Of a stretch of DNA of 64,000 nucleotides, positions 37,261 through 38,090 are shown in pieces. Position 1 is the stretch's first letter; every line of letters begins with the position of its first letter. The notes beneath the pieces are model-generated. The model worked only from the letters and a program-made list of their open reading frames with translations, was not told the origin of the DNA and did not search any database. Source of the DNA: Eledone cirrhosa (Eukaryota); NCBI GenBank assembly GCA_964016885.1, contig OZ024743.1, forward strand, positions 301,568,001 through 301,632,000. Reading direction: 5' to 3'. Position numbers and translations under genes: made by a program.

Positions 37261-38090
37261 TTTTATAAGGAAAGTATATACTTTCGAACGTTCAACTATC
37301 TGGCGGAAGGGTATACGGTGCTGATGATAGCTAACAAGCTTGAAACTAGTACATCGTTCCTGTGTCAGTGTTGAACAAAAAGGTGACGTGGTTGCCTTAA
37401 CACCGTACGGCATAAAATTCAGGCTGTTCAGTTTGTTTACAAACGAACAAAGCGGCGTTATAATAAGCGTCCGCTAAACTGATACGTGCATATATGTATG
37501 TGTACCTGTATGTATATATATATATATATATATATATATATATATATATATATATATATATATATATATATATATATATGCATGCTACTGTACGTCTGTA
37601 TACATATATGTATGTACGTATACACACATACTTACATTTAAGTAAGTGCCGTACTAAGAGTGAGAAATGAAATTTCGTTTTCATTTTATTTCAACTTATC
37701 GTTTTCGGTATGCCTGACCGACTTAACTCACTCGATATGCAAATTAGGCTGCTCAGCCGTTAATTTTCATAAGGAAAGTATATACTTTCGAACGTTCAAC
37801 TATCTGGCAGGAGGGTATACGGTGCTGATGATAGCTAACAAGCTTGAAACTAGTACATCGTTCCTGTGTCAGTGTTGAACAAAAAGGTGACGTGGTTGCC
37901 TTAACACCGTACGGCATAAAATTCAGCCTGTTCAGTTTGTTTACAAACGAACAAAGCGGTGTTATAATAAGGGTCCGCTAAACTGATACGTGCATGTATG
38001 TGTACCTGTATGTATATATATATATATATGCATGCTACTGTACGTCTGTATACATATATGTATGTACGTATACACACATACTTACATATA
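37261..38090 (+). mobile_element. Tandem ~504 nt repeat, each unit with a hammerhead (retrozyme-like)
   Basis: GGTG-CTGATGA-TAGCT-AACA-AGCTT-GAAA-CTAG-TA-CATC at 37317-37355 and 37821-37859. Confidence 0.85.

Follow-up and report, generated by a model that had tools for sequence, protein, structure and literature searches.

Metazoan non-LTR retrozymes are described as short, non-coding tandem repeats of low repeat number, with one type I hammerhead ribozyme per unit, a GC content below 50% and a predicted circle that is self-paired, and they co-occur with Penelope-like elements (Cervera and de la Pena 2020, PMC7229834; Li, Clavereau and Pollet, bioRxiv 10.64898/2026.07.22.740005). According to the same sources, the mechanism of their mobilisation and its carrier are still unproven. 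The canonical metazoan type I hammerhead has a helix I of 6 bp, a helix II of 4 bp and a helix III of 1–2 bp with a palindromic loop, and is active as a dimer (PMC4209133). For Penelope-like elements, a bias towards (TA)n and inverted 5' copies have been reported (PMC8557442).

The 64-kb stretch of DNA analysed here (the window) is AT-rich eukaryotic DNA; (TA)n makes up ~3 kb of it, and it also holds a GIY-YIG fragment and a number of LINE relics. Three loci, near 33, 37 and 46 kb, carry 1.4–1.9 copies of a unit of ~440–470 nt that bears one type I hammerhead; the three are homologous, differ in their ends and have their 3' ends at (TA)n. They share the retrozyme features listed above, and the ribozyme architecture matches the canonical one of PMC4209133. 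With 469–504 nt, the unit is longer than the 150–450 bp given in PMC7229834 and falls within the 51–972 bp given in bioRxiv 10.64898/2026.07.22.740005. An internal (TA)n together with (TA)n ends, as found in the present units, is not described in the sections consulted of either source. The elements form a new family within an established class, that of the metazoan non-LTR retrozymes; the supplement of PMC7229834 lists invertebrate retrozymes and might include it.

The element at 37 kb (37259–38087, plus strand) consists of ~1.7 head-to-tail copies of a unit of ~440 nt plus an internal (TA)n, with a period of 504. Copy 1 is full (37259–37761), and its first nucleotides form an AA microhomology to the upstream LINE relic. 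Copy 2 (37762–38087, extent by homology) comprises ~0.75 unit and ends with ACTTACAT, followed by a (TA)n at 38088–38190 which is the inferred insertion target. The two repeats are directly adjacent, with no internal region between them. The duplication aligns 37259–37640 with 37762–38090, and outside the TA tracts 5 of 306 aligned positions (1.6%) differ between the copies. No ORF of at least 120 aa overlaps 37259–38087, and the GC content of 36–38 kb is 38%. Tandem Repeats Finder missed the unit because the longest period that it handles is 500.

A sequence-only reading of this DNA had described a tandem repeat with a 504-nt unit, marked by identical motifs at 37317 and 37821. The motifs are exact: the 39-nt sequence occurs only twice, at 37317–37355 and 37821–37859, with a spacing of 504 nt. 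The period and the duplication stand as well, but there are only ~1.7 copies, and 67 nt of the 504 are an expanded microsatellite. That the unit has its own (TA)n which differs in length between copies was also correct: it spans 67 nt in copy 1 (37513–37579), where it forms the tip of a long AY-rich hairpin, and 17 nt in copy 2 (38013–38029).

Each motif contains a type I hammerhead core on the plus strand (37321–37351 and 37825–37855), and the two cores are identical. They consist of CUGAUGA, helix II (U·U plus 4 bp, loop AACA), GAA and the palindromic ACUAGU, with A at H17. Helix I (ACGGUG/CAUCGU, 6 bp) continues with U·U, a bulge of UA and the pairs GG/CC into a long extension, so that the extended helix I of core 1 covers ~37290–37374. 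Helix III is a single A-U pair capped by the palindromic CUAG, and the cleavage triplet is GUA. The cuts, predicted after 37351 and after 37855, would yield a 504-nt monomer (37352–37855). In both copies, the core CUGANGA...GAA, A15.1-U16.1 and the NUH triplet are intact; the 46-kb copy fails in this respect (GGAA).

Two weak features of this ribozyme are known, one each, from axolotl hammerheads (PMC7229834): HHR_Amex1 has a 1-bp helix III with a palindromic tetraloop, and HHR_Amex2 has U·U at the base of helix II. The 37-kb ribozyme joins both, and a dependence on the dimer is predicted alike for it and for the amphibian units, which were compared by their description only. HHR_Amex2 cleaves 22% in 1 h as a monomer and more as a dimer (PMC7229834); since it does so with U·U, the pair G10.1-C11.1 is not obligatory. 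Among the three elements, this position at the base of helix II is occupied by U·U in the 37-kb element, by A·A in that at 46 kb and by G-C in that at 33 kb. Both U·U (37328/37341) and A·A (46645/46632) are one change away from an A-U pair, and A-U may be the ancestral state of the family.

The sibling at 46 kb (46195–46964, minus strand, 3' end at the (TA)n 46162–46197) comprises ~1.45 units and is circularly permuted: it begins near 46964, crosses the hammerhead once and then repeats ~0.45 unit, with 16 of 185 positions differing within this internal repeat. The minus-strand relative had been announced as permuted, which it is, though with a single hammerhead and a core change. This hammerhead (46622–46652, minus strand) is decayed: it reads GGAA in place of GAAA (A13G) and has the loop AAUA, a G·A mismatch within helix I and A·A at positions 10.1/11.1. 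A13G is expected to be inactivating from classic hammerhead mutagenesis. As the copy has only this one hammerhead, with its core change, it is probably dead as a ribozyme. Compared to the 37-kb element by BLAST, with TA tracts included, it shows 75–79% identity, and 90% over 155 nt outside the ribozyme.

The third element, at 33 kb (32987–33874, plus strand, 3' end at (TA)n), has a 469-nt unit without an internal TA tract, present in 1.9 copies which show 4 differences in 414. Its hammerheads (33068–33098 and 33537–33567) have G10.1-C11.1. A complete type I hammerhead in two successive units is thus found at 37 kb (37321 and 37825) and at 33 kb (33068 and 33537), not at 46 kb.

BLAST at E 1e-4 gave no direct link between the 37- and 33-kb units. 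Local alignments of the flanks of the ribozyme, against 500 shuffles each, did link them. Upstream of the ribozyme, 37 vs. 46 kb matched at 139/155 positions (z 33.9), 37 vs. 33 kb at 99/140 (71%, z 11.5, 0/500 shuffles as high) and 46 vs. 33 kb at 101/139 (z 9.4). Downstream, the values were 73/103 for 37 vs. 46 kb (z 10.1) and 66/107 for 37 vs. 33 kb (62%, z 6.1, 0/500 shuffles as high), while 46 vs. 33 kb was not significant (46/67, z 1.7, 31/500 shuffles as high). Nine other hammerhead flanks served as controls; eight of them stayed at z ≤1.1 and one (39140) reached z 3.7. Because the homology outside the ribozyme is significant (71% and 90% relative to the 37-kb unit), the alignments assign the elements at 33, 37 and 46 kb to one superfamily. 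The earlier view of a "second" repeat with a diverged sibling at 46 kb is thus correct with regard to the sibling, but the 37-kb element is a diverged member of the 33-kb superfamily and not a separate family. All of these comparisons cover copies within the window; an exact scan of bacterial and archaeal genomes with the motif pattern gave no match.

The AACA loop II and ACTAGT are common to the 33- and 37-kb units, as had been noticed before. The five motifs align without gaps over 58 columns, and 57 of 64 cells pair. Six of the 16 hammerhead pairs (helices I and II) are changed on both sides, a number reached in 1 of 500 shuffles, with slid controls at 0–2. The structure is therefore kept while stems I and II change, as the sequence-only reading had proposed, on the basis of window copies and of two effective lineages. 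The alignment has four distinct rows, and all six changes stem from the split between 33 and 37/46 kb; as read from these rows, the covariation is one deep comparison rather than many.

Among the Rfam models, the best hammerhead model was HH9 (RF02275), with 38.6–38.9 bits at 33 kb (E 2.5e-6; gathering score 52). No hammerhead was reported at 37 kb in the search of the whole window; in a 221-nt search, HH9 matched 37811–37873 with 17 bits (E 0.096), again below the gathering score. Loop and bulge positions align to HH9, namely the loop II of 6 nt and the UA that bulges from helix I. The elements differ from HH9 in scoring below gathering and in having no stable helix III. HH9 is a single-copy conserved locus and the present element a mobile repeat. 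Rfam matches to miRNAs over TA tracts were rejected as low-complexity artefacts, all being below their gathering scores. A model built from the five motifs recovered these together with a candidate at 39124–39184 (18.4 bits, E 0.01), and the other 13 of its 19 matches scored below 16 bits. In the window as a whole, 22 hammerhead-core patterns were found, compared to 3.4 ± 1.6 expected (0/100 shuffles as high).

The candidate at 39124–39184 belongs to a single-copy element at 38656–39300 (plus strand) which ends at a (TA)n at 39301 and has no octamer of the kind considered below. Its hammerhead is of type I, has the loop CAACA and a helix III of 3 bp, and opens helix II with U·U; similarity to the 37-kb unit is weak (z 5.0 with the core included). 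Another element, at 31937–32665, has a hammerhead at 32363 (plus strand) whose helix III is 8 bp long and which adopts the hammerhead fold by itself. It carries a 467-nt direct repeat (32130/32597), a short internal run of TA and a 5' copy in inverted orientation. The 33-kb unit is preceded by 25 nt of this element (32965–32989).

In constrained folds, the double hammerhead was more stable than two single ones, by 4.2 kcal/mol at 37 kb (-215.4 vs. -211.2 kcal/mol) and by 10.3 kcal/mol at 33 kb (-218.0 vs. -207.7 kcal/mol). Free folds were lower (-226.2 at 37 kb, -222.9 at 33 kb) with the core mispaired, and the gap to the double hammerhead at 37 kb was 11 kcal/mol in energies that omit tertiary contacts. 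Folded as circles, the monomers were 66–68% paired, at z -7.1 (37 kb, TA tract left out), -9.8 and -3.6. Because the antisense strands also fold well as circles (z -4.4, -8.1 and -3.6), much of this signal is that of a plain inverted repeat. Of 12 windows used as background, nine were at z -1.3 to +0.5; the remaining three comprised two palindromes and the 33-kb unit. The 37- and 33-kb units have a common layout of hairpins: outside the ribozyme, 51 of the 84 pairs predicted at 37 kb reappear, to within 2 columns, in the fold computed independently for the 33-kb unit (382 shifts gave a mean of 2.0 and a maximum of 14). When the 37-kb fold was mapped onto the 33-kb unit, 11 double changes kept the pairing and 4 did not, while 22 single changes disrupted a pair. 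Mapping in the opposite direction gave 6 vs. 11; the slid control used in this comparison is invalid since slid positions were not required to pair in the source.

All three elements enter (TA)n at their 3' end through an AT overlap. Those at 33 and 46 kb stop at the same homologous site (TTTAT/CG), so that three insertions use two distinct 3' end points. The 5' ends at 33 and 37 kb lie within 2–5 nt of one site, and that at 46 kb lies elsewhere. Each 5' end adjoins another element with 2–5 nt of microhomology and no TA in between. The neighbour is a LINE relic for the 37-kb element, a Penelope-like piece in inverted orientation for that at 46 kb and the 25-nt hammerhead-repeat piece for that at 33 kb. 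No target-site duplication, which in non-LTR retrozymes exceeds 4 bp where one occurs, is readable, the 3' flanks being (TA)n and the 5' junctions showing only this microhomology. Both distinct 3' end sites fall on an unpaired AU, which is not significant given that 17/37 and 10/37 AT sites are unpaired anyway.

The LINE relic next to the 37-kb element (36518–37260) lies outside the element and has a 5' inversion: its 3' part is on the minus strand (36518–36873) and its upstream part on the plus strand (36871–37260), with ~420 nt missing between them. It is related to the copy at 1–2382. In 188 codons it has 24 relic-derived amino-acid changes, of which 4 are stops, along with deletions of 36 and 19 nt, and is ~6% decayed. 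One chimeric insertion of relic and element was ruled out, the relic being far more decayed than the tandem copies (5/306), a figure that gene conversion between the copies could keep below their true age. Since the relic is much older than the tandem, insertion at the edge of the (TA)n tract is likelier than co-insertion. Other LINE relics in the window are a tandem duplicated RT element at 5686–12406 (minus, ~96% between copies), a 920-aa RT frame at 12964–15726 (minus) and an endonuclease-RT frame at the window end (61613–63999, plus). For one LINE protein of the window, the named relatives were from a ctenophore (58% identity) and from a sea urchin (51%), which makes an invertebrate host likely.

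(TA)n likewise lies at the end of Penelope-like relics in the window. The 5' end of the 46-kb element adjoins a pseudo-LTR region outside the unit (46965–47377), made up of an inverted piece at 46965–47035 (minus) and a part at 47040–47377 (plus) ending at (TA)n. The latter is one of two terminal-repeat copies which end at (TA)n, the other being at 52602–53335 (minus), with hammerhead-like cores at 47098 and 52837. Both are copies belonging to the Penelope-like relic at 3994–5127 (plus), whose own terminal repeat stops at (TA)n as well. The part 3994–4590 of this relic reads CNNRNCIIC and then C..C..YIGET (a CxxxxCxxC linker), and Pfam gave no GIY-YIG match there. From the linker described in PMC8557442, we take this part as a putative Neptune-type Penelope endonuclease. 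The GIY-YIG endonuclease fragment at 25383–25760 (minus; Pfam E 1.6e-6) is probably from a second Penelope-like family; no homologues of it were found among longer proteins.

One may ask if the units could be 5'-truncated pseudo-LTRs of an autonomous Penelope-like element with its ORF outside the window, the partial tandem being an ordinary Penelope insertion pattern. The hammerheads of Penelope-like pseudo-LTRs (PMC4209133, PMC8557442) share with the present ones the type I topology and a helix III region that is palindromic; partial tandems, a position at the edge of (TA)n and neighbours arranged head-to-head are further points in common. The (TA)n 3' ends and head-to-head neighbours are typical of Penelope-like elements, some of which have ribozymes with a small palindromic helix III, and the 2026 preprint derives retrozymes from pseudo-LTRs (bioRxiv 10.64898/2026.07.22.740005). 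In the window, all six inter-(TA)n segments with core patterns on both strands (at 29.7, 35.7, 38.2, 46.5, 51.2 and 52.6 kb) have their cores pointing outward to the tracts, head-to-head, as judged by pattern matches only; two such patterns (36162 and 38306) did not adopt a hammerhead when folded.

Against this origin, the three insertions use two end points and at 3/3 loci run into the next unit, not into coding sequence. The 46-kb copy is permuted, 37259–38087 has no ORF of at least 120 aa, and an RT/GIY-YIG ORF is not linked to the units. The minimal pseudo-LTR hammerhead of PMC4209133 has a helix II of 7–8 bp, an extra base after A9 and no helix III, whereas the ribozyme described here is canonical, with a helix II of 4–5 bp, an extended helix I, ACUAGU and no extra base. 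Homology to the pseudo-LTRs of the window was not detected for the three copies tested, in 60 comparisons (2 units × 15 segments × 2 strands); 3 of the 60 exceeded z 2.5, none of these being a pseudo-LTR. By the tests run, the 37-kb feature is not a member of the Penelope pseudo-LTRs or of HH9, and we regard truncated pseudo-LTRs as an unlikely source of the three elements.

As a reading that brings the above together, we favour with good confidence a non-autonomous, non-coding non-LTR retrozyme which spreads by double-hammerhead cleavage, circularisation and reverse transcription beyond unit length, for which a Penelope-like enzyme would use a nicked (TA)n. Cleavage of a transcript that spans two units would occur after A37351 and A37855. 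The two cores would most likely swap strands and form a 6-bp ACUAGU/ACUAGU helix (the double hammerhead), because helix III has only 1 bp and CUAG is palindromic. By analogy to known retrozymes, the 504-nt monomer would be closed by a host RtcB-type ligase into a highly self-paired circle. A Penelope-like GIY-YIG nuclease would nick (TA)n, and the DNA end would pair with an unpaired AU of the circle. Reverse transcription over more than one round of the circle would leave a permuted copy of more than unit length with its 3' end on (TA)n and 2–5 nt of microhomology at the 5' end; the circular permutation at 46 kb requires a template that was circular or multimeric. Once inserted, the copies would decay and their internal TA seed would expand. 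The 46-kb copy is the oldest of the three, with a core base lost; at 37 kb the core is intact and helix II weak.

Several observations count against this reading: the free fold of lower energy with its mispaired core, the low HH9 score at 37 kb, the antisense strands that fold well, the missing target-site duplication, the 5' neighbour at 37 kb, which is a LINE and not Penelope-like, and the failure to find homology between the units and the three pseudo-LTR copies compared. Whether the 37-kb locus still cleaves is perhaps an even bet to judge from its sequence, in view of the U·U, the 1-bp helix III and the success of only one in nine predicted-active dimers, eight of the nine having failed to cleave (bioRxiv 10.64898/2026.07.22.740005).

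An element of the same class could also have become tandem at the DNA level, by local duplication of a monomer, or by a circle inserting into the (TA)n of a copy already in place. In that case the 37-kb locus may not have given rise to a circle at any time, and the carrier may be a LINE instead of a Penelope-like element. Each unit at 37 kb has its own (TA)n, and insertion of one unit there (37580–38012 plus TA) would lead to the same sequence. The copies are 1.6% apart, compared to a flanking LINE relic that is ~6% decayed. LINE relics are abundant, and PMC7229834 leaves LINEs open as carriers. Yet the 33-kb unit is a 1.9-mer without an internal TA, all three loci exceed one unit and differ in their ends, and the age gap speaks against co-insertion with the adjacent LINE. 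We consider such an origin of the tandem improbable. It is hardly credible that the hammerhead arose by chance within a MITE-like or satellite repeat, rich in hairpins and in AT, and never was a ribozyme: the low Rfam score at 37 kb, the whole-window search without a hammerhead there and the non-canonical 10.1-11.1 pair would fit, but the core is invariant between 33 and 37 kb while six flanking pairs are double-changed, and the 33-kb homologue matches HH9 at E 2.5e-6.

The region 32–41 kb resembles a nest of successive insertions into one (TA)n tract. It includes a 367-nt direct repeat (34112–34478 and 34775–35129, 89%) and a 510-nt inverted pair (35145–35654 and 38159–38655, 90%), a group with hammerhead-core-like patterns at 35378, 38306 and 38436. 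Long palindromes are numerous in the window, most of them bounded by (TA)n; they are found at 28870–28996, 29771–30000, 30110–30428, 35652–36313, 39356–40174 (97.7% self-complementary over 819 nt), 40567–41208, 47459–47762 and 51196–51611.

The longest run that is invariant in all three units is TATGCAAATTAG (37736–37747, plus strand; 12 nt, vs. core runs of 8 and 7 nt), the 5' arm of a shared hairpin. Such a run arises in 4.2% of column permutations (P = 0.042), for a motif chosen after seeing it. It holds the octamer ATGCAAAT; the octamer is the distal element of snRNA promoters. The octamer is perfect in 3/3 units, and three of the ten octamers of the window lie in these units. Downstream of it there is an ATATA, with a spacing that is equal within 1 nt in all three units; at 37 kb, the palindrome GAAAGTATATACTTTC (37774–37789, plus strand) has a TATA-like core 42 nt downstream of the octamer start. 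Against a promoter, the conserved run serves at the same time as an arm of the shared hairpin, and a proximal sequence element was not identified in the units. Newt satellite 2 uses an internal snRNA-type Pol II promoter (PMC2220036). On this pattern, the octamer may mark an internal snRNA-type promoter. A Pol III (U6-type) promoter is disfavoured by T6 and T5 runs in the 33-kb monomer and four T4 runs in that at 37 kb. In the literature searched, from which most subscription journals are missing, no report of a retrozyme with an octamer or a microsatellite, or of a hammerhead tandem repeat with an octamer or a proximal sequence element, was found (one "octamer" referred to multimers).

We extend this to a more speculative proposal, possible but rather doubtful at present. 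The superfamily would be a retrozyme that transcribes and seeds itself. Each unit would carry a Pol II promoter of the snRNA type, based on the octamer and directed into the hammerhead of the following unit, as in newt satellite 2 though in an invertebrate lineage, so that a 1.7-mer needs no host read-through. In the 37/46 branch, the unit's own (TA)n would lay down a new target for the Penelope-like carrier with each insertion and so feed the nested microsatellite arrays of the window.

Metazoan retrozymes seem to lack promoters (PMC7761336), in contrast to the conserved octamer of the present units. If the octamer is a promoter, this would contradict that view and would explain the high expression of metazoan retrozymes. 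The trio at 33, 37 and 46 kb (G-C, U·U and core-mutated) is a natural series for dimer-dependent cleavage. The three loci also show the footprint of mobilisation directly, with permuted ends, more than unit length and 3' ends on (TA)n like those of the neighbouring Penelope-like repeats.
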